Positions 44,413 through 60,430 of a stretch of 64,000 nucleotides of DNA are shown here, piece after piece. Positions within the stretch are counted from its first letter, which is position 1. Every line of letters begins with the position of its first letter. The notes beneath the pieces are model-generated. The model was given only the letters and a program-made list of their open reading frames with translations. It was not told where the DNA came from and made no database searches. A program made the translations under genes and the position numbers. This stretch comes from Escherichia coli (lineage in GTDB: Bacteria; Pseudomonadota; Gammaproteobacteria; Enterobacterales; Enterobacteriaceae): the NCBI RefSeq assembly GCF_041248615.1, contig NZ_CP158426.1; one strand, written 5' to 3'.

Positions 44413-45357
44413 ATGACTATGTCCCTGCATACCAAGATAAGTGCCCCTAACACGACAGCGGCGACCAGCGTATCCTCGCTGGATCTGTCAGGCTCCTCAA
44501 AAACGAAATGTTCAACAGCCAGAACCGATATTTATCAGACTGTTACCGACAGCATAATTGCGGCGCTGGAAACCGGAGTAAAACCTTGGGTGTGTCCTTG
44601 GCAGCGAGCTCCCGGTATGTCCGGTTTACCGTCCAATTACGCCACTGGTAAGGCTTACAGCGGAATGAATATCATGTTGCTTTGGTGCAGCGCGTCAAAA
44701 CAGGGATTCTGTGATTCACGCTGGATGACCTACAAACAGGCAAAAGCGGTAGGTGGGCAGGTGCGCAAGGGAGAACACGGCACTACCGCGATTTTCTATA
44801 CCACGCTGGAAAAGGAAAATGATAACGGAGAAACTGACTATATTCCTATGCTGAAAGCATTCACTGTGTTTAATGTTGAACAAATTGACGGTTTACTCCT
44901 GAGTGATGATGCCGTTTTTCCGGCAGAGATCTTTGAGCCATTACCACGTGCAGAAGCACTTTTTCGTAGTAGCGGTGCAACCATTATTGAAAAAGGACAG
45001 AATGCTTTTTTTACACCATCAACCGACGAAATTCGCTTACCTGAACGGTATCTTTTTATTGATGCTGCTAATTTCTACGCAACCGGCCTGCATGAGCTCG
45101 TTCACTGGAGTGGGGCAAAAAGTCGGCTGAACCGTGAAATGAAAGGGAAATTTGGCAGCGAGGGGTATGCGTTTGAAGAGTTGATCGCTGAGCTGGGGAG
45201 CGCATTCCTGATGGCGGATCTGGGGATAGTTGGAGAAGTTCTGCATGACAGTTATATCGCTTCCTGGCTTAAAGCACTGAGGAATGATAAACGCTATATT
45301 TTCAAGGCCGCCAGCGCGGCATCGAAAGCACATCGCTATTTGATGGATAAAAGCTGA
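44413..45357 (+). CDS. ArdC-like anti-restriction protein (N-terminal ssDNA-binding domain plus HExxH metalloprotease-like domain)
   Basis: 314-aa ORF; HELVHW motif in the C-terminal half; architecture and size fit ArdC/DUF1738 proteins of conjugative elements. Confidence 0.6.
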   Translation: MTMSLHTKISAPNTTAATSVSSLDLSGSSKTKCSTARTDIYQTVTDSIIAALETGVKPWVCPWQRAPGMSGLPSNYATGKAYSGMNIMLLWCSASKQGFCDSRWMTYKQAKAVGGQVRKGEHGTTAIFYTTLEKENDNGETDYIPMLKAFTVFNVEQIDGLLLSDDAVFPAEIFEPLPRAEALFRSSGATIIEKGQNAFFTPSTDEIRLPERYLFIDAANFYATGLHELVHWSGAKSRLNREMKGKFGSEGYAFEELIAELGSAFLMADLGIVGEVLHDSYIASWLKALRNDKRYIFKAASAASKAHRYLMDKS

Positions 45358-50514: not shown

Positions 50515-50880
50515 ATGATTGATGTCTTAGGACCGGAGAAACGCAGACGGCGTACTACACAGGAAAAGATCGCTATTGTTCAGCAGAGTTTTGAACCGGG
50601 AATGAAGGTCTCCCTTGTTGCCCGGCAACACGGTGTGGCAGCCAGCCAGTTATTTCTCTGGCGCAAGCAATACCAGGAGGGAAGTCTTACTGCTGTGGCC
50701 GCAGGAGAGCAGGTCGTTCCTGCCTCTGAACTTGCTGCTGCCATGAAGCAGATTAAAGAACTCCAGCGCCTGCTCGGCAAAAAAACGATGGAAAATGAAC
50801 TCCTTAAAGAAGCCGTTGAATACGGGCGTGCAAAAAAGTGGATAGCGCACGCGCCCTTATTGCCCGGGGATGGGGAGTAA
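50515..50880 (+). CDS. insC: IS2 transposase OrfA (InsC)
   Basis: [53 protein letters not shown]... matches recalled IS2 InsC. Confidence 0.85.
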
Positions 50881-51743
50881 GCTTAGTCAGCCGTTGTCTC
50901 CGGGTGTCGCGTGCGCAGTTGCACGTAATTCTCAGACGAACCGATGACTGGAAAGATGGTCGCCGCAGCCGTCACTCAGATGATACGGATGTGCTTCTCC
51001 GTATACACCATGTTATCGGAGAGCTGCCCACGTATGGTTATCGTCGGGTATGGGCGCTGCTTCGCAGACAGGCCGAACTTGATGGTACGCCTGCGATCAA
51101 TGCCAAACGTGTTTACCGGATCATGCGCCAGAATGCGCTGTTGCTTGAGCGAAAAACCGCTGTACCGCCATCGAAACGGGCACATACTGGCAAAGTGGCC
51201 GTGAAAGAAAGCAATCAACGATGGTGCTCTGACGGGTTCGAGTTCCGCTGTGATAACGGAGAAAAACTGCGAGTCACGTTCGCGCTGGACTGCTGTGACC
51301 GTGAGGCACTGCACTGGGCAGTCACTACGGGCGGCTTCGACAGTGAAACAGTACAGGACGTCATGCTGGGAGCGGTGGAACGCCGCTTCGGCAACGAGCT
51401 TCCGGCGTCTCCAGTAGAGTGGCTGACGGATAATGGTTCATGCTACCGGGCTAATGAAACACGGCAGTTTGCCCGGATATTGGGGCTTGAACCGAAGAAC
51501 ACGGCGGTGCGGAGTCCGGAGAGTAACGGCATAGCAGAGAGCTTCGTGAAAACGATAAAGCGTGACTACATCAGTATCATGCCTAAACCAGACGGGTTAA
51601 CGGCAGCAAAGAACCTTGCAGAGGCGTTCGAGCATTATAACGAATGGCATCCGCATAGTGCACTGGGTTATCGCTCGCCACGGGAATATCTGCGGCAGCA
51701 GGCCAGTAATGGGTTAAGTGATAACAGGTGTCTGGAAATATAG
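50838..51743 (+). CDS. insD: IS2 transposase OrfB (InsD, DDE integrase domain)
   Basis: 301-aa ORF overlapping orfA in another frame, as in IS3-family OrfAB arrangement; DDE-type catalytic region. Confidence 0.85.
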
Positions 51744-53106: not shown

Positions 53107-55032
53107 CTAAAAGTTCAGTAACGAGGGATGATCCTCTTTACCTGCACCTGCACCTGCACCTGCACCTGCACTTGTTGTTGTGTGTTTCTCGTCCGGCTTG
53201 TCAAAAAAGAGATCGGGTTGTGTTGTCGTGATAACTGATGTTGATGACGGTCCGGATGACATTTCTTCCTCGTCAAAATTCAGGGCAATGTTGACTCTTG
53301 CGGCGGTGGCGGCAACAGCGGGCGATACGGCACAGATCGCCAGTTCCCTTTTTTTAACCCTGATGGGAGAAATTAGTGAAGCAGAGGGGAGGGCTTTGGT
53401 GGTGAATATAAAACTGACAAAATCAGGCAGGTTCAGCACCATATTACTGTCGATAAAGAAACGCTCGGCCTGCCTGATGGTGCGTTCACTATCGATAGTC
53501 TCTGTCAGCACCGCATCTGTTTTGGCTTTGCGGACTTCGTCATCGACTAATATGGTGCCTGACATTCTTGCCACCCAGTCAGCGGTATCAGGGTCCATGA
53601 CACGATAAACCAGCTTGAATTTGGCATTCTCCACAACTGCACCCACCACGGCATCGCTTTTCAAATCCGCCGGGCAATCTTTTAAATCGGCAATGGATTG
53701 GTGGTCCATAATAATGTGTACACCTTTATCCCGTGCCGCACCTAAGCCTTCCAGCGCAGGCTTGGATAAATGGTATTTCAGTTCGGAAAGGTAAATAGCA
53801 ATAGGGCGGGGTGTGTGGTTTACCCGATCGCGCCTTTCTGCCAGCTGGTACAGGCGAACCAGCAGCATGCGCTGAGCGGTAATAATTTTGCTGTTGCGCA
53901 TCGAGCCAATCACATAGCAGCAACCACCGTTATCAAATATTGTATTGAGGGAAAATCCTGCCGGTGCATTGATGGCATTGAGTAAGGCCAGCTCCTCAAT
54001 TTTCCCGAAAAAGGCTTTTATCTTATCAGCGATACTTTGGACGTATTCCCCGTTATACACATCCCGAATGGTTGAGGTCGTATTACGGGCGACAAATTGT
54101 GCAGCTATTCGGGCTGCTTTGCGATCGTCAATGCGATAAAAGTCAGACTCTTGTCCTTTCTCTGCCAGACTGAAACCCGCGACAAAAAGTTCTTCCAGTT
54201 CATCAGCGGTGATATCGTTAATCAGGTTTAGCTGGTATGCCTGTTTCCTCAGGTCAATTAGGGCAAAGGATTTCCCTGCATCCTCGCAGGCTTTCCGGTA
54301 AAGGTGTGGGGCCCACTCATCATCTTTGGGGTCCATAACAAATACGCCTTCACCGGCCAAAATACTCTGATAAAGTAATATCCCGGTGGCCACCCCTTTA
54401 CCGGCCCCCGTGGTCCCGATGATATCGGCATGTTGTTTTTGCCAGTCTTTTAACGGCAGGTACATCGGCTGTTTCATTCTGTTCATGCCGATAAAAATAC
54501 CTTTACTCAGGTTAATATAATCCTCCGGGTTATAGTGCAATGTTTCCGGTAGCAGCGATTTCACCGTTCGGACATCAGTACGTAATTCCCTTTCCAGAGT
54601 GGTTTTTCTGACGAACCGACTTTTTACTTTATCGAGTTCAGGTGTTAACACCCTGCGCAGAAGAATATGGAAAACAAAACCGGCTGCGGTAGAGGTAATC
54701 AGTATCAGCCAGGAGAGGACAGTATTGCTGGTGGCTATCTTTATTCGGTATATCCATTGAAATAATTCGTTCACCACGGGCGCTATTGTGCCAAACAAAA
54801 AGCACAGTATGGAAAAAACTATCACCAGCTTTTTCCATAAAGGGGCTTTGAGTCGTTCATCGCTTTTCATCGACGCGAAGAATGGCATGGTCAGCCCTGA
54901 GAATAGCGCCAAAATAGGTTGATGCTGGTGCATAAAAACGAGCAGTCCCAGCATGCCGTCCACTATCGGTGATAGTGAAACGATCAGCTTATTTAACACC
55001 ATAATGCTTCCTTTATCGGCCATTCGCCCCAC
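53107..55032 (-). CDS. virD4: Type IV coupling protein (VirD4/TraG-like ATPase)
   Basis: N-terminal hydrophobic segments, Walker A IIGTTGAGKGV, DPK motif (VFVMDPKDDEW); C-terminal (Ala-Gly)5 tail. Confidence 0.75.
   Translation of the reverse strand: MGRMADKGSIMVLNKLIVSLSPIVDGMLGLLVFMHQHQPILALFSGLTMPFFASMKSDERLKAPLWKKLVIVFSILCFLFGTIAPVVNELFQWIYRIKIATSNTVLSWLILITSTAAGFVFHILLRRVLTPELDKVKSRFVRKTTLERELRTDVRTVKSLLPETLHYNPEDYINLSKGIFIGMNRMKQPMYLPLKDWQKQHADIIGTTGAGKGVATGILLYQSILAGEGVFVMDPKDDEWAPHLYRKACEDAGKSFALIDLRKQAYQLNLINDITADELEELFVAGFSLAEKGQESDFYRIDDRKAARIAAQFVARNTTSTIRDVYNGEYVQSIADKIKAFFGKIEELALLNAINAPAGFSLNTIFDNGGCCYVIGSMRNSKIITAQRMLLVRLYQLAERRDRVNHTPRPIAIYLSELKYHLSKPALEGLGAARDKGVHIIMDHQSIADLKDCPADLKSDAVVGAVVENAKFKLVYRVMDPDTADWVARMSGTILVDDEVRKAKTDAVLTETIDSERTIRQAERFFIDSNMVLNLPDFVSFIFTTKALPSASLISPIRVKKRELAICAVSPAVAATAARVNIALNFDEEEMSSGPSSTSVITTTQPDLFFDKPDEKHTTTSAGAGAGAGAGKEDHPSLLNF
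53141..53170. repeat. Hexanucleotide repeat (CCTGCA)x5 inside the 3' end of the T4CP gene
   Basis: cctgca repeated 5 times in frame, encoding AGAGAGAGAG at the protein C-terminus. Confidence 0.95.
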
Positions 55033-55552
55033 GACATCGCCCCCTCAATTCGCCCCACGGTGTTGGGCGAAAAGCTGGGGTGAAAGCAGGGGCAAACAGA
55101 GGTGGCTGCGGTGCAGCCATGTGCCGGTAGATAGACTTTCCGGCCCGAAACGACGTGCACCAGTTCATGCGGGCTGGACGCCCTTATTGCCTGGCGCATG
55201 GGGGTAATGGCGTGGCTGTACGCCGCGCCAAAACCCCCAGGGTCAACGGCGGCACACCGTCGCCCGCTACGCGCGACCAACCCCTTTAAGACGCGCGTTT
55301 CGCCTGTTTTTTTCTCGCAAGCTCCAAAAAACGGGAACGCTGCTTTAAAGGGGTTGGTCGCGCCTGATTGGTAATATCCCCGCTGGGGCGGGAAATATTA
55401 CCTGGCTTGACGGTGTGCGGGGCAAGCCCCCCACAAAAAACGGCACGTGGGCGTGCCTTTTTGCTCGCTGGGGCGGCAAAATTTTTGCGGCTCCCCCGGC
55501 CTGCTTAATTCGCTGTGGGCGAATGTGCGCAGATGGATGCGGTACCTGAAAA

Positions 55553-55633
55553 TTAACAATTTCTGCGAAATTGAATTTTCTGTCCGCGTTCCACTGGCTT
55601 ATTTCACGGCTTAACAATTTCTCCGAAATTGAA
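55553..55633. promoter_or_regulatory. Two copies of palindromic operator-like site TTAACAATTTC(T)GCGAAATTGAA upstream of the T4CP gene
   Basis: 55553..55575 and 55611..55633 differ at one base; each contains inverted repeat caatttc-N3-gaaattg; lies in a 680-bp non-coding gap. Confidence 0.4.
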
Positions 55634-55709
55634 GCCAGAAATTAGCCAGCCTCAACCCCGCCGTCTGTCAGTCTGTGGCGCTGTGAGGCATAGTGTAATG
55701 TCCGGTGGT

Positions 55710-56410: not shown

Positions 56411-56806
56411 TTAATGTGAAAAATAAATATAGGTATCGCTACACGTCAGGCACTGAGTTGCAGGTTGATATTCAATAACACCATTTGCGCCATGCTGGCG
56501 AAGCCAGCTTGTTGCAGTAAAGAATGCTGTGCCTGATGGTGCAGCAACAACAATACGCGTCGAATGCGCAACTGCGTAAAATACGTCGGGGGTCCAAAGT
56601 GTCTCGTTAAACTGCGTTGAGTGAACGGACAATAACCACTTCCCATTAACGATTGGGGAAGGATTAATAACGGGGGTGTCATTCCATTGCGATAAATTGA
56701 TATTCACTGACTCGCCCGATTTATCCCATTCAACAGATACCGGTGGGGGTGGTGACGAACAGCCGGTAAGCACCATTAAAAATAACAGTATATTGATGGT
56801 TTTCAT
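56411..56806 (-). CDS. Lipoprotein of unknown function in T4SS operon
   Basis: Lipobox LTGC after signal peptide (MKTINILLFLMVLTGCSSPP); start overlaps virB11 stop. Confidence 0.5.
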   Translation of the reverse strand: MKTINILLFLMVLTGCSSPPPPVSVEWDKSGESVNINLSQWNDTPVINPSPIVNGKWLLSVHSTQFNETLWTPDVFYAVAHSTRIVVAAPSGTAFFTATSWLRQHGANGVIEYQPATQCLTCSDTYIYFSH

Positions 56807-57849
56807 TATGCTTTCATCTCCTCGAAGAAGGCATTACGGTGCAGTGGCCGGAAATAGATATCATTCATTCGGCGCACGTTGCCGTCTAAATCAATACTGA
56901 CAATAACATCCAGACTGTCCAGCACTTTGCGTAACATAAACGTGTAGGGCAGCCGGGCGCATTGTGGGTTTTCATAACAGCGAGTAATAAAACCGTCTAC
57001 CGCTTCTATTGCTGAACCCGCATGCAGGGAAGTCATACTGCCTTCATGGCCGGAGCCGGTTATTTTGAGAAAATCCCAGGCTTCACCACCGCGCACTTCG
57101 GTTAACAATATACGGTCGGGGTTCATGCGATAATTCCAGCGCAGAAGACTGGCTGGCGTCACAATCGAGCCTTTTTCATCTGCTGATTCGGACGGATAGA
57201 AGAGGTGGACATAGTTTTTATGAACAAAAAAGGTGATTTCCGGATTATCTTCAATGGTCGTAATACGCAAATGGCGAGGAATAAAACCAATCAGCATCTT
57301 CATGTAGGTTGTTTTCCCGGTACCGGTTTCCCCGGCCACCGCGATAGTTTTACCGTACTCCACGCACTTCTCCATAAAGCGCGGGATATCTTTGGCGGTA
57401 TACAGGCTCAACAATTCCTGATCGTGCGTCTGGGTGGTTTCTGAGCCCGTCACCCTGTTATAAAAACCGGCGTCGATATAGCTCTGGTGGGGAATTTGTA
57501 CCTGTGACGGCTTTCGGATAGTAATGGAGACGGTGTTGCGCTCACAGGCCGGAGGGACAATAACCTGACAACGTTCACCGGATTCCAGCGTGGCTGACAG
57601 CCCCGGTTTGATATCTTCAATATTGTCGCAGTGATGCTTTGCCAGGCATCTGGCGAAGTTGTAGCACCCCTCATAATCCAGCGAAACACTGTGCAGCTCC
57701 CAGATACCATTAATTTTGGTAAATAGCTCGCCCGGGCGGTTGACGGCGATTTCTGTTAGTCCAGGATGAGCAATAAAATCGCCAAAAAATCGCTGTGTAT
57801 AGCGATCGAGAGAGATGTTTTTCATGTGATATCCTTGTATCGGATACAT
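56806..57849 (-). CDS. virB11: VirB11-family T4SS ATPase
   Basis: Walker A GETGTGKTT, Walker B-like RILLTEVRG, His box GSMTSLHAG; 347 aa. Confidence 0.85.
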   Translation of the reverse strand: MYPIQGYHMKNISLDRYTQRFFGDFIAHPGLTEIAVNRPGELFTKINGIWELHSVSLDYEGCYNFARCLAKHHCDNIEDIKPGLSATLESGERCQVIVPPACERNTVSITIRKPSQVQIPHQSYIDAGFYNRVTGSETTQTHDQELLSLYTAKDIPRFMEKCVEYGKTIAVAGETGTGKTTYMKMLIGFIPRHLRITTIEDNPEITFFVHKNYVHLFYPSESADEKGSIVTPASLLRWNYRMNPDRILLTEVRGGEAWDFLKITGSGHEGSMTSLHAGSAIEAVDGFITRCYENPQCARLPYTFMLRKVLDSLDVIVSIDLDGNVRRMNDIYFRPLHRNAFFEEMKA

Positions 57850-57862
57850 TTGTGGAGGGAGT

Positions 57863-58870
57863 ATGTCGAAGACGAAAGTACTGTTCGCTTATTGCCATGA
57901 ACTCGGGCGCTGTTTGTCCATTGATGAAGCGCGAATGGAATTTTTTTCCAGAAAGCCGGAAGAAAGGAAGCGGTTCACTTTTTCATGTAGCGATCGCAAC
58001 TGTGATGTCACCATTAGCGGTGTTAACTATCACGTCAAAGCTGAAGATGGTGAGAAATTCAAGGCTGCGCACTTCCGTTCACCTCATCCTCACAAGTTCG
58101 GATGTGAATGGCTCGAATTCACCGAGGATGCGGATCAGGACCGGCGTCCAGACGAGTCAGAGGCTGATTTCACAGAACGAAAAGCAAAGCAAAAGCTGAC
58201 GGACTATATCAACTGCTTTGACCCTTCAATAGATGATCCTGATGGCGAACCATCCGATCCCGTGAAGCTTGTTACGCCTGTTCACACAAGAAAAACTGTC
58301 GGGGATGATGATAAAACGGGTACAAATGAAGAGCCCCGCTGGAGTCGCTACACGCGAACCAACCAGCTTCAGCGACTTATCGACACATGGCAGGAAGCGA
58401 AAGAAACGCTGCCTCAGGATGAGTTCCGGGCGTTGAGACTCAGGATCATGCACCATGATCAGGTCTATCTACATGAATATATAACGCATATACAGCGTGG
58501 ATTGGCTAATCCGTATTCGGGCGTCATCTATGGTGGTGGGACCCTAATGCATCGGTATGGTCGGGGTTTTCTGATTAATTTCTTTGATAAACATGAGGGG
58601 AAGCCTGTTCGCCTGTATGTCAGTAAAGATCTGATGGCGAAAGGACGGTTTGGTCATTATATCGATGAGATTCTGGACACTAAAAACGTCAGATATTTCC
58701 GTATATTTTTACTCAATCCGGTTGTTTCCGAACGGGAAAACAGCACAGGAAAAAGCGTTATCAACCTTGAAATATCAAAGCTGCGTCAACTGGCTATTTA
58801 CTACGAACTGAACTCCAGCAGAGAAGATGAATCTTCATCGGTGGAGACGGAGGGGGAAAGTCCGGCGTAG
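57863..58870 (+). CDS. Hypothetical protein (335 aa) encoded antisense inside the T4SS operon
   Basis: Only long ORF on either strand across 57860..58800; acidic stretches; no recognised domain. Confidence 0.45.
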   Translation: MSKTKVLFAYCHELGRCLSIDEARMEFFSRKPEERKRFTFSCSDRNCDVTISGVNYHVKAEDGEKFKAAHFRSPHPHKFGCEWLEFTEDADQDRRPDESEADFTERKAKQKLTDYINCFDPSIDDPDGEPSDPVKLVTPVHTRKTVGDDDKTGTNEEPRWSRYTRTNQLQRLIDTWQEAKETLPQDEFRALRLRIMHHDQVYLHEYITHIQRGLANPYSGVIYGGGTLMHRYGRGFLINFFDKHEGKPVRLYVSKDLMAKGRFGHYIDEILDTKNVRYFRIFLLNPVVSERENSTGKSVINLEISKLRQLAIYYELNSSREDESSSVETEGESPA

Positions 58871-59187
58871 CGGGCTAATGTTGTCACAAGAATGAGTATA
58901 TCGGTGACGTCAGGCAGCGATATCTGCTTATGTGCCAGCCGGATATCGTCCGGGGAAAAAGGCGGTGCATCCAAAGGGCCTTCACTGATGGTGATACAGA
59001 ACGGTTGCTCTTCTCCTGAGTCAATACTGAGTTCTATCAATGCGCCCCCGGCACGATAGCATGTCATGACTATTCTTCTGATTCCGGTAAGGTGTGACAG
59101 TAAGTCGTTGACGACAGCGTTGCTGAAATCGTCCCTTACGATGACGTCTGTCGCCGTAACACCAAACAAAAACTTTCGATTACTCAC
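58801..59187 (-). CDS. Hypothetical protein (128 aa) downstream of virB10
   Basis: ORF start overlaps virB10 stop by 8 nt, suggesting co-transcription; no recognised motif. Confidence 0.35.
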   Translation of the reverse strand: MSNRKFLFGVTATDVIVRDDFSNAVVNDLLSHLTGIRRIVMTCYRAGGALIELSIDSGEEQPFCITISEGPLDAPPFSPDDIRLAHKQISLPDVTDILILVTTLARYAGLSPSVSTDEDSSSLLEFSS

Positions 59188-60430
59188 TCTTCATCCTCAG
59201 CGTGTAGATGCCTGAAAAATCAATATCCTGCCCTGTGACCAGGTTGATGATTTCACCCTGATTTTTGTAGAGCGTCGGTGGGATATTAATGCTGTTTTCC
59301 AGCGTGGTACGTGCCATATCCGCCATAGCCTGACGGCTGTTTTCTGTATAGTCGGTATTCCGATCTTTCTGACCGGCGCTGTTGGATGCCCATGCCCCAA
59401 TATCAGGGATCATACCGACCAGTAATGCACCTCCAAATCGCTCCCTGAAATGCGAGTCTATCCAGCCATCAACGCCAGCCTCGCCCAGTTCTCCGGCAGC
59501 ATTCGTATCGACCAGCGGAATATCAAGGAAAGGGGGCTGGCGGGTACGCAGTTTCGTGATGATGATGAATGCGCGTCCCTGTCCATGCGTCATTCCTGTT
59601 TCTGCACCAGTCTGGTACATCCCCGTGGCGGTGGTCCCTTTTTCTATCAGCTTTGTATTACCGCTGGCGCTCCAGATGTCTTCGGCGATCGTGCAGCGGA
59701 TTTTTCCAGCCCGATCTGAGACAAAACGGTAATCCAGTGAGCAGGGAATAGCGGTATTTTCCGGCACGTACAGATCGGGATTATAAGGAATTCGCCGGAC
59801 CGCTGTCGGGGACTGTTCCGGCTGTGGCGACGAGGTGTTTAGCGGCTGACCGGTATCAGAATATTGTGTCTCTGACGGCTGTCTGGCTGAGGATGCCTGC
59901 GTCATTTCCTGATACCGGGTCCGTACCGGATTTCGTACCGCTGAACCTGAACCCTCCCGGCGCACCAGAAAACGGGCTTTATCTAAGTCGGGCAGAGCCT
60001 CCGATCCGTTGGGTGTCGTACTACCAGGGTTGTTGTCCGCCGGTTCTGGTGTTTTCGCGTCGATATAGTGCGTACCCAGATCGGTACGCTGTCGAGAATC
60101 GGTCCGATCTGTCGGGGCCACAGTTTCCTGAGGCTTTTCTTTACCTGGCTGCCAAAGAAGATTGTGGTATATCCAGTTACCCCCCCACGCCAGTGCAATC
60201 AGGGCAACGGCAGCGAATGCCAGAAAAGCGGTGGCTTTCCCCTGCTGGCGCTTTTTCAGTTTATTGACAGCCGGCTGTATTGGATCGTTATTGTCATCAT
60301 CCTGCCAGGTGTGAAGCACAGCTTCACGCTTTGCGCGGGCCTCGCGCTCAAGCGCAGCAATATCATCATCCTTCTGTGTCGGACAGGACCTGGATTCATC
60401 TGGCACAGGATGCAGATGTTCGTCATTCAT
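59180..60430 (-). CDS. virB10: VirB10/TrbI-family T4SS protein
   Basis: N-terminal cytoplasmic/TM segment, Pro-rich linker, C-terminal VirB10-type domain (…GAETGMTHGQGRAFIIITKL…VDGWIDSHF…). Confidence 0.8.
   Translation of the reverse strand: MNDEHLHPVPDESRSCPTQKDDDIAALEREARAKREAVLHTWQDDDNNDPIQPAVNKLKKRQQGKATAFLAFAAVALIALAWGGNWIYHNLLWQPGKEKPQETVAPTDRTDSRQRTDLGTHYIDAKTPEPADNNPGSTTPNGSEALPDLDKARFLVRREGSGSAVRNPVRTRYQEMTQASSARQPSETQYSDTGQPLNTSSPQPEQSPTAVRRIPYNPDLYVPENTAIPCSLDYRFVSDRAGKIRCTIAEDIWSASGNTKLIEKGTTATGMYQTGAETGMTHGQGRAFIIITKLRTRQPPFLDIPLVDTNAAGELGEAGVDGWIDSHFRERFGGALLVGMIPDIGAWASNSAGQKDRNTDYTENSRQAMADMARTTLENSINIPPTLYKNQGEIINLVTGQDIDFSGIYTLRMKSE

Follow-up and report, generated by a model that had tools for sequence, protein, structure and literature searches.

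The 335-aa gene lying antisense between virB11 and virB10 in the analyzed stretch of Escherichia coli DNA (64,000 nt, hereafter the window) is one half of a conserved, self-contained two-gene accessory module of mobile elements, whose genes are co-inherited. The feature is a two-gene unit rather than a lone inserted gene: a large plus-strand gene faces a small minus-strand gene, and the two overlap tail to tail (Table 1). The sequence-only reading had described both the 335-aa frame, placed antisense between two minus-strand vir genes, and its 3′ overlap with a 128-aa frame as we find them; the overlap measures 70 bp. Its distance of 14 bp from the virB11 start has to be revised, as it relied on an upstream ATG at 57849 that is not conserved, while the conserved start at 57825, which is also that of PGAP, leaves a gap of 37 bp. 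Within this spacer the large gene has a GGAGGG Shine-Dalgarno sequence at 57854-57859 and virB11 has AAGGA, and both GGAGGG and the CAT of the virB11 start (57823-57825) are conserved in an alignment of ten genera. At the other end, the GTG start of the small gene overlaps the virB10 stop by 8 nt, as read from the sequence, and a GTG or ATG start is conserved among relatives. No terminal repeats, flanking repeats or target duplications were found around the module, and no known RNA family was detected in the 52-64 kb part of the window.

Table 1. Positions of the module, its predicted domains and its flanking genes, counted from the first nucleotide of the window
Feature	Position	Strand	Basis
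virB11 flank	56806..57825	-	Pfam T2SSE 1.4e-20; PGAP; start from ten-genus alignment
Segment missing from pMET-1-type virB10/virB11 junction, ~1.37 kb	~57817..59183		local alignment against pMET-1-type locus L010 and pMET-1 annotation
Spacer from virB11 start to large-gene ATG, 37 bp	57826..57862		sequence
Large gene, 335 aa, ATG start	57863..58870	+	ORF; antisense to virB operon
N-terminal domain, aa 1-87	57863..58123	+	model, pLDDT about 58-84; family alignments
Helix and acidic, variable, largely disordered linker, aa 88-164	58124..58354	+	model and alignment
C-terminal OB-fold domain, aa 165-318, pI 9.45	58355..58816	+	AlphaFold model
Tail-to-tail coding overlap of large and small genes, 70 bp	58801..58870		from coordinates
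Small partner gene, 128 aa	58801..59187	-	ORF; same direction as virB genes
virB10 flank	59180..60430	-	Pfam TrbI 2.3e-41; PGAP

The large gene is protein-coding and under purifying selection. Its dN/dS ratio lies at 0.06-0.13 (NG86, six pairwise comparisons), and a comparison of the window with an 88%-identical copy gives 25, 15 and 73 differences at codon positions one, two and three, respectively. The gene had been called an orphan, which it is not: homologues of its product form 59 clusters at 90% identity and 262 at 50%. Most homologues are about 305-335 aa long, with full-length matches down to 24-26% identity. We give virtually no credence to the view that the plus-strand frame is spurious and the region non-coding or coding on the minus strand. 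In its favor, no promoter consensus was found upstream. Against it stand the dN/dS of about 0.1, the excess of differences at third codon positions, homologues that match over the full length at 24-98% identity, a confident folded model, and a minus strand on which no ORF longer than 76 aa lies beneath the part of the gene outside the overlap. Searches of Pfam, NCBIfam, PHROGs, PADLOC and PDB sequences with single proteins and whole-protein profiles returned no meaningful match to the large protein, in agreement with the earlier remark that it holds no recognizable motif, and a profile of its N-terminal domain matched no family or PDB sequence either. A match to eIF5 (E about 0.01-0.3) was discarded as driven by low-complexity acidic sequence. 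A pattern search for the close family in a viral contig collection found no relative, and a phage origin was rejected.

The small gene is likewise a real coding gene under purifying selection (dN/dS 0.19-0.30); that its 128-aa frame is a conserved partner is a point the sequence-only reading had missed. Its product is acidic (pI 4.39, net charge -9) and is modeled as an alpha+beta fold with a pLDDT of 74.9. Y44, T66 and D93 are invariant in the family alignments, and Y44, R45, T66, D93 and D96 are common to all proteins in the partner alignment. Neither single proteins, nor the family profile, nor 14 diverse members gave a meaningful match in Pfam, NCBIfam, PHROGs, PADLOC or PDB sequences. One cluster of the family bears the UniRef name Immunity protein 10, a label that we rejected, as the small protein and 13 members had no match to Pfam Imm10 at E values up to 5-10; the label also runs counter to the context, in which the neighbors are T4SS genes and no polymorphic toxin is present. 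A 106-aa gene found at the virB10/virB11 junction of other E. coli ICEs is unrelated to the small partner.

Pairing of the two genes extends far beyond E. coli. In 12 of 12 paired loci measured, the genes are convergent and overlap by 13-110 bp, down to 26% identity, and the identities of the large and small proteins drop together over the loci (99/93, 89/80, 59/50, 57/46 and 37/28%, respectively). The partner in the Providencia-type F plasmid is homologous to the small protein (hhalign 97.8%), and the distant partners at loci L008 and L013 match each other (BLASTP 3e-6). The pair occupies five T4SS sites, namely the virB10/virB11 junction, a position after a VirB11-like ATPase in Vibrio plasmids, a traF/traQ-like junction, the traI/traX junction, and a site between TraU and S26-TrbI, in operons of P-, F- and Vibrio-type T4SSs. 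At these sites the orientation never varies, with the small gene in sense and the large one antisense; counting against the reading favored below, five sites would agree by chance in as many as about 1 in 16 cases, and agreement would also be expected if reading of the small gene simply depended on the operon. The pair was also found outside T4SS operons, both on a Rhizobium megaplasmid and next to toxin-antitoxin pairs (VapBC or TacAT), where large genes abut the toxin gene, with a 2-bp gap to VapC and a 4-bp overlap with TacT. Solo copies of both genes exist, the large one at loci L020, L021, L030, L034 and L036, and the small one in pVA1-type plasmids and in 493 Klebsiella conjugative plasmids, where it sits within arrays of co-oriented small ORFs. 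Plasmid records of the small family outnumber those of the large about 17-fold (610 versus 36).

The module is accessory and not part of the secretion machinery, because close T4SS relatives have virB10 and virB11 directly adjacent, as had been expected of such operons. In the self-transmissible pMET-1 the two genes overlap by 11 bp and the module is absent, and about 190 E. coli genomes (ICEs) carry an uninterrupted junction. Relative to pMET-1 the extra segment amounts to about 1.37 kb, close to the earlier estimate of about 1.3 kb. ICEs from at least eight other genera carry the module at this same junction, including cases in which VirB10 identity is down to 61%, and the module co-diverges with the T4SS across genera, by which a recent one-off insertion was rejected. 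Of the proposal that a gene had been inserted here, accessory status and absence from the closest T4SS relatives thus hold, whereas a recent, one-off insertion of a single gene does not, since the unit comprises two genes and shares its junction with those other genera. Otherwise 98%-identical Vibrio plasmids differ in the presence or absence of the large gene beside the small gene; in this comparison the entire small gene and its upstream neighbor are replaced too, and the small alleles share no more than about 50% identity, a pattern resembling the exchange of cassettes through homologous flanks.

The AlphaFold (AF2) model of the large protein (pLDDT 72.9, pTM 0.67) can be divided into four: it starts with a Cys/His domain, continues through a disordered acidic linker into a basic OB fold on the C-terminal side, and ends in a disordered tail. 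C11, C42, C47, H77 and C81 are invariant and H70 is near-invariant in the family alignments, and this Cys/His pattern suggests that the N-terminal domain probably holds a zinc-binding site. The acidic stretches noted earlier are real and sit in predicted disordered or low-confidence regions: pLDDT falls below 50 in the linker at residues 125-164 and in the tail at residues 319-335, and the stretch right after residue 87 is also of low confidence. Sub-stretches of the linker have net charges of -6 and -3, and its alignment columns are variable; the tail (net -5) is variable or absent among homologues and has no conserved tip. The C-terminal domain is modeled with the OB fold of the nucleic-acid-binding superfamily and carries a conserved aromatic/basic KRYGxGF hairpin; its best structural matches are SSB, RPA, MCM10 and the anticodon-binding domains of aaRS, at sequence identities of 5-17%. 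Across 52 diverse members of the family only the Cys/His residues are invariant, and no set of acids and bases is conserved. From the model we infer a soluble, non-enzymatic nucleic-acid binder, for which ssDNA or RNA would be possible ligands.

OB-fold nucleic-acid binders with an associated zinc module are known in RPA70 DBD-C and T4 gp32, as in the internal domain of MCM10, and the large protein is predicted to be similar. It differs from them in that its Cys/His domain is N-terminal and precedes the OB fold by an acidic linker of about 75 residues, and in that identity is 5-17% with no profile match. The N-terminal zinc motif of the CoiA type (F-x-C-x2-4-C ... HF-x-H ... C) offers a further lead, though a lead only: the large protein reads RFTFSCSDRNC ... 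AAHFRS ... H...C, with similar Phe/Cys/His spacing, yet 52 members of its family gave no match to the Pfam CoiA family even at E<=1, and no PD-(D/E)XK nuclease domain follows. Entry or surface exclusion proteins of the EexN, TraS and TraT type were also considered. Neither product has a hydrophobic segment or N-terminus (maximum Kyte-Doolittle(19) of 0.61 for the large and 1.29 for the small protein), which makes an exclusion protein unlikely, and an EexN gene is annotated separately within the same operon.

The convergent, overlapping layout is compatible with a regulatory role. A scan of the window for a sigma-70-like promoter of the large gene gave none, and the Vibrio copy has one weak candidate, at a rate no better than chance. 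The module itself contained no terminator-like site, and the single one detected in the scanned region (59325-59340, within virB10) does not exceed chance expectation; overall, neither promoter-like nor terminator-like sites surpassed their chance frequency. Because each coding region runs into the other before a terminator could be accommodated, the large and small transcripts would necessarily be antisense to each other, and virB11 is reachable only through operon read-through that runs for about 1 kb antisense to the large gene. Such mutual antisense transcription would set the expression of the two genes against each other. When the T4SS operon of the ICE is transcribed, the small protein would be made and the large gene silenced; with the operon silent, transcription of the large gene itself would oppose read-through into the small gene, virB11 and T4CP. 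The large protein would then signal the state without transfer or be active in it, with the small protein accompanying transfer and perhaps neutralizing the large one directly. The occurrence of both genes alone implies that they are not obligate partners and weakens a strict antagonist model.

A switch on conjugation by convergent transcription has been established experimentally for prgX/prgQ of pCF10, where the overlap is at the 5′ ends and at the head of the operon. Here, too, the predicted transcription units are opposed and overlapping, and collision or antisense pairing could give mutually exclusive, transfer-linked states; the present overlap differs in being 3′-3′ and in lying mid-operon. 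A closer parallel in layout is found in the F plasmid, with trbA (81857-82204, plus strand) and artA (82206-82520, minus strand) between traF and traQ; these genes co-occur in F-like plasmids (PMC5102898). They too form a tail-to-tail sense/antisense pair inside the tra operon, artA being the sole gene on the anti-tra strand of the F transfer region, and their traF-traQ site is that of the module in Providencia-type F-like plasmids. In contrast to the module, the F genes abut without overlap, and ArtA has 104 aa as against about 310-335 aa. Homology of F TrbA to the small protein and of ArtA to the large one was rejected (hhalign 0.5% and 0.1%, no BLASTP alignment).

As the best reading of these data we tentatively favor a nucleic-acid-binding protein and a small acidic partner that counter each other's expression through convergent transcription and, in this ICE, are coupled to the tra operon. 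A more far-reaching version, which we rate as unlikely, is a two-state switch of mobile elements not recognized before, in which a zinc/OB-fold effector and an acidic antagonist, expressed exclusively of one another through an obligatory 3′-3′ overlap, have been plugged repeatedly into T4SS operons and couple cellular state to transfer-gene activity; the state so coupled could be donor growth arrest, ssDNA protection or rival exclusion.

It is rather doubtful that the large protein is instead an atypical ssDNA-binding protein of plasmids and ICEs, which would coat or protect the transferred or retained strand during conjugation or aid establishment, with the small protein as a T4SS-associated cofactor. 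An OB fold closest to SSB, RPA and MCM10, an SSB-like acidic disordered linker and tail, and repeated placement in T4SS operons of three types speak for it, and there is a precedent in PrgE of Enterococcus pCF10, an OB-fold DNA-binding protein encoded inside a T4SS operon and non-essential for transfer (PMC11137577). Like the large protein, PrgE is a soluble OB-fold protein amid the mating-channel genes of a conjugative element and is atypical in comparison with chromosomal SSB, and the related T4SSs here likewise appear to work without the module. PrgE is, however, encoded in sense and co-expressed with its operon, has about 144 aa, lacks a zinc domain and a convergent partner, and shows no detectable sequence relationship to the large protein; its DNA binding is known, that of the large protein predicted. 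The antisense large gene would not be co-expressed with the T4SS, and members without nearby conjugation genes occupy a chromosomal site, Tn7 cargo, a defense island and a Rhizobium megaplasmid. No match to Pfam SSB (PF00436) was obtained for the window protein (E<=10) or 52 diverse members (E<=1), nor any PDB sequence match, and the acidic tail varies, is lacking from several homologues and has its coding sequence in the stretch shared with the small gene.

An anti-defense role, named by the sequence-only reading beside exclusion and regulation, or one in defense or in competition between elements, with either protein acting on the immunity of the host or of rival elements, is also an unlikely explanation. 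Both genes are cargo of mobile elements, and two solo large genes have suggestive neighbors (an MmeI-type RM, helicase and T5orf172 cluster at L021; DUF4917 on Tn7-like cargo at L034), but this context evidence comes down to those two loci. DNA-mimic anti-restriction proteins are acidic, as is the small protein (pI 4.4), whose gene stands alone in the small-ORF arrays of the 493 Klebsiella plasmids; yet the two window proteins had no match at all to described defense or anti-defense families (PADLOC-DB 2.0, PHROGs, and Pfam models of the Ard, Klc and Acr kind), 52 and 14 diverse members of the two families gave none in PADLOC, PHROG, Pfam or NCBIfam beyond scattered single-member matches at E>0.002, and the close-family patterns were not found in the viral contig collection. 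By analogy with F-like strand polarity, the transferred strand would not be the template of the large gene, and early expression from incoming ssDNA would be unlikely. This argument is a weak point, as the ICE family may have two nic sites (PMC2262945). A toxin-antitoxin-like addiction or abortive module, in which one protein inhibits growth (for example by sequestering ssDNA or tRNA), the other neutralizes it and the antisense overlap serves as control, strikes us as quite unlikely. Such a role would suit a two-gene module of plasmids, ICEs and islands, the opposite charges of the basic OB domain and its acidic partner, and large genes abutting VapC and TacT, and some type I systems use 3′-overlapping antisense control. 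All 12 pairs are nevertheless convergent and not operonic, unlike type II modules, which are co-directional and always together; both genes are often found alone, the large protein has no conserved catalytic residues, and no TA family was matched. Highly unlikely, finally, is a selfish, mobile large gene directed at the 3′ terminus of the small gene, itself widespread, in the manner of a free-standing homing gene. Such targeting would explain the fixed tail-to-tail geometry, and it fits the excess of small genes on plasmids, the presence or absence of the large gene in the Vibrio plasmids and its invariant position and orientation relative to the small gene. Against it, Pfam reveals no nuclease, transposase or recombinase signature, acidic catalytic residues are not conserved, terminal repeats and target duplications were not found, the Vibrio case swaps the whole small gene and its upstream neighbor, and the two proteins co-diverge over long distances.

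The usual view of transfer operons is one of machinery accompanied by a handful of familiar accessories (exclusion proteins, SSB, anti-restriction proteins and the like). The present pair, fixed in its convergent overlap, adds two families without annotation, of which the large one comprises at least 262 clusters at 50% identity and the small one occurs on over 600 sequenced plasmids. It has come to lie in T4SS operons of three architectures, at five sites and with constant polarity, and the virB10/virB11 junction gives evidence of being an insertion hotspot. Even if its function proves modest, the pair provides annotators with two new families and a corrected start of the small gene. If it gates or senses the activity of the transfer operon, it would add a new regulatory or conflict layer to the spread of ICEs and of resistance and virulence plasmids, among them AHPND-related Vibrio plasmids and Klebsiella IncHI1B/IncFIB plasmids.

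The 335-aa plus-strand ORF (large gene) that the sequence-only reading had placed antisense between virB10 and virB11 is present, with both flanks on the minus strand and its 3′ end overlapping the 128-aa minus-strand ORF (small gene) by 70 bp. Adjacency of the two virB genes in relatives was likewise borne out: they overlap by 11 bp in the nearest plasmid relatives, the pMET-1/pCRY-type plasmids, and the junction is uninterrupted in ~190 of 5,426 complete E. coli genomes, the extra segment occurring in only 7. The 14 bp formerly given to the virB11 start depends on an upstream ATG that is not conserved; from the start in the ten-genus alignment, the spacer to the large-gene ATG is 37 bp and holds a conserved GGAGGG. 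Window 37850-64000 has an identical counterpart in the E. coli NRZ14408 chromosome (NZ_LT599825.1), where both ORFs lie in an ICE-type VirB/MobC transfer region and are labelled hypothetical by PGAP.

Features of the locus, the large protein and the sites of its homologues (window coordinates unless marked)
Feature	Position	Strand	Description
Large gene, 335 aa, ATG start	57863-58870	+	ORF
Small gene, 128 aa	58801-59187	-	ORF; overlaps final 70 bp of large gene
virB11 flank	start 57825	-	Pfam T2SSE 1.4e-20; start from ten-genus alignment
virB10 flank		-	Pfam TrbI 2.3e-41
Extra DNA relative to pMET-1	~57817-59183		
N-terminal domain	aa 1-87		small beta/alpha domain (AlphaFold2 model)
Linker	aa 88-164		helix, then variable acidic stretch; 125-164 disordered (AlphaFold2 model)
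OB fold	aa 165-318		confident fold, pLDDT ~90 (AlphaFold2 model)
Tail	aa 319-335		disordered (AlphaFold2 model)
Pair, Vibrio/Aliivibrio plasmids			directly 3′ of VirB11-like ATPase, ahead of hns
Pair, Serratia F-type plasmid			traI/traX
Pair, Providencia-type F plasmids			traF / traQ-like gene/trbB
Pair, another F-type operon			TraU / S26/TrbI
Solo large gene	L020		adjoins bacteriocin exporter
Solo large gene	L021		within MmeI-RM/helicase/T5orf172 cluster
Solo large gene	L030		chromosomal site
Solo large gene	L034		adjoins DUF4917 on Tn7-like cargo
Solo large gene	L036 (7287-8993)		divergent from hns, integrase/DUF3987 island unrelated to Vibrio plasmids

Across this T4SS family the junction (window 57817-59183 against loci L010, L041 and L042) takes at least three states, being empty in pMET-1 and the ~190 E. 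coli genomes, occupied in E. coli A28 and T309.Ta3 by a sense-strand gene of 106 aa that is unrelated, and filled by the two-gene module in the window; it looks like an insertion hotspot. Elsewhere in the window, the hexanucleotide ACCTGC is repeated perfectly in tandem 5.3 times (53140-53171) at the 3′ end of mobB, where it codes for (Ala-Gly)5 of the coupling protein's C-terminal tail; the tract is possibly slippage-prone. The GC-rich (0.58-0.60) intergenic stretch upstream of mobB (55033-55700) is where, by analogy with pMET-1/ICEEc1 (PMC2262945), one would expect oriT and, in an inverted repeat, its two nic sites. Beyond mobC lies an ArdC-family gene, after which come, in this order, an integrase pseudogene, cargo (glycosyltransferase, GH16, hchA) and an IS3-family transposase (~44413-45357 and ~50515-51743 for the set, from L001 coordinates); the layout points to an ICE end that has decayed or been rearranged.

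The large ORF is a real gene, beyond chance. Differences from an 88%-identical copy fall 25/15/73 by codon position, and NG86 dN/dS in six comparisons spanned 0.06-0.13 (large gene) and 0.19-0.30 (small gene), whether the overlap was included or excluded; we give a spurious ORF virtually no credence. Nor is it an orphan, as had been supposed, because full-length homologues fill 59 clusters of the indexed database (47-98% identity) and an exhaustive HMMER scan (E<=1e-3) recovered 262 clusters at the 50% identity level, down to 24-26% identity and mostly ~305-335 aa long. The family stays unannotated despite its size: searches of Pfam, NCBIfam, PHROG, PADLOC and PDB sequences with the window protein, 52 diverse members and profiles returned no match, in keeping with the earlier remark that the protein has no recognisable motif.

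The framing as a single inserted gene gave way to that of a pair, since the two genes are convergent and overlapping (13-110 bp) in 12/12 pairs measured, wherever the partner exists. ICE-lineage pairs (Citrobacter, Pectobacterium, Erwinia, Pantoea, Symbiopectobacterium, Winslowiella, Kosakonia and another enterobacterium) always lie at virB10/virB11, even where identity is 61% for VirB10 and 59% for the large protein, and at 5/5 T4SS sites the sense strand carries the small gene, the antisense strand the large one. Outside T4SS operons, pairs occur on a Rhizobium megaplasmid and adjoining VapBC or TacAT modules. An hhalign match of 97.8% for the Providencia-type partner, a BLASTP match (3e-6) linking two partners among the most distant, and Y44, R45, T66, D93 and D96 common to all are evidence that the small partners form one family; identity of the two proteins drops in parallel across loci. 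These are two unannotated families in strictly conserved convergent overlap, repeatedly placed in transfer operons by conjugative elements.

In Vibrio/Aliivibrio plasmids (L003 218-2072; L014, L024, L027) the large gene is divergent from an element-encoded H-NS gene, and in V. vulnificus pVv_GCU-01-3 (L014 6986-7974) it is an apparent pseudogene, broken into two ORFs beside an intact small partner. Vibrio pVOWZ4 (L003) and pVPA3-1 (L039) share a 98%-identical hns flank with one cassette replaced, a 168-aa gene, a 165-aa small gene and the large gene in one against a 251-aa gene and a 128-aa small gene without the large gene in the other; their small alleles are only ~50% identical.

The small protein is acidic (pI 4.39, net charge -9), with a predicted alpha+beta fold (pLDDT 74.9) whose structural matches are weak and mixed; the name 'Immunity protein 10', carried by one UniRef cluster, was not reproduced by current Pfam. 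Its GTG start sits within the final virB10 codons (GTGAGTAA) and is conserved among ICE homologues; the small gene is therefore translationally fused to the operon. PGAP gives it 88 aa in some genomes, including NZ_LT599825 (L001 20952-21218), while in AP029605 its call is 128 aa; this long form, whose start overlaps the virB10 stop, is the conserved one. Neither gene is obligate to the other. PLSDB holds 610 records of the small family versus 36 of the large; the small gene is solo in canonical pVA1-type plasmids, without any large-gene remnant, and in 493 Klebsiella IncHI1B/IncFIB plasmids, among arrays of co-oriented small ORFs. In these MOBH plasmids, pRHB30-C05_2 (L040 7965-8372) and 492 others, the solo homologue (43% identity, hhalign 99.9%) precedes a solitary Cas6/CasE-like gene and a helicase.

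The AlphaFold2 model of the large protein (36 homologues; pLDDT 72.9, pTM 0.67) has four parts. C11, C42, C47, H77 and C81, the sole residues invariant over the whole protein in 52 members, together with near-invariant H70, lie in the N-terminal domain and are read as a putative zinc site. With a pI of 9.45 the OB domain is basic, and it has a conserved KRYGxGF hairpin; its Foldseek matches, E. coli SSB at the top (E 3e-3) and AspRS/LysRS OB domains (probability 0.98-0.99), are none of them strong and all nucleic-acid-binding OB folds. Acidic stretches, noted earlier, lie in linker and tail; the tail is variable and often absent; it is the reverse complement of the small protein's conserved C-terminus. 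No hydrophobic segment and no conserved acid/base constellation pointing to catalysis were found.

Among the rivals, ordered by our estimates, a conjugation-dedicated atypical SSB comes first, though we think it unlikely. Its model is PrgE, the nearest functional analogue, a dispensable OB-fold protein within a T4SS operon (PMC11137577); unlike the large protein, PrgE is sense-oriented and has neither zinc domain nor partner. Anti-defence, as proposed earlier, or competition is doubtful, and the small acidic protein is a better candidate for it than the large one. A toxin-antitoxin-like module, next in order, is more doubtful still; distant large-family genes do abut a VapBC toxin gene (L028 941-2297, 2-bp gap) and a TacAT toxin gene (L035 1962-3442, 4-bp overlap), placed as if third genes of those operons. 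A site-directed selfish gene aimed at the 3′ end of the small gene is improbable, and the spurious ORF comes last. No defining sequence feature of the SSB, TA, Imm10, exclusion, homing-endonuclease or known defence/anti-defence families was found, only the predicted generic OB fold. F-plasmid trbA/artA resembles the module in its tail-to-tail sense/antisense arrangement and occupies in F the site that the module takes in Providencia-type plasmids; no homology is detectable. We rate the pair among accessory putative nucleic-acid-binding genes in T4SS operons.

The module is a conserved accessory pair that the T4SS itself does not need; in this ICE, reading of the small gene goes along with the operon, whereas the large gene runs counter to it. 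The large protein would bind nucleic acid through its basic OB fold, aided by the zinc-type domain, and the small acidic protein would be its functional counterpart. Because each gene ends within the other and no terminator-like site was found inside the module, their mRNAs would be mutually antisense, and expression of each would therefore oppose that of the other. Operon transcription would have to pass through the large gene in antisense for ~1 kb before reaching virB11, the coupling protein and MobC; by this geometry, T4SS-on would mean small-on and large-off, and vice versa. A search of the window for a sigma-70-like promoter of the large gene identified none. From geometry and predicted structure, we tentatively read the two genes as an opposed pair tied to the state of transfer; that they may represent a genuinely new kind of expression-state switch is a much less probable step.
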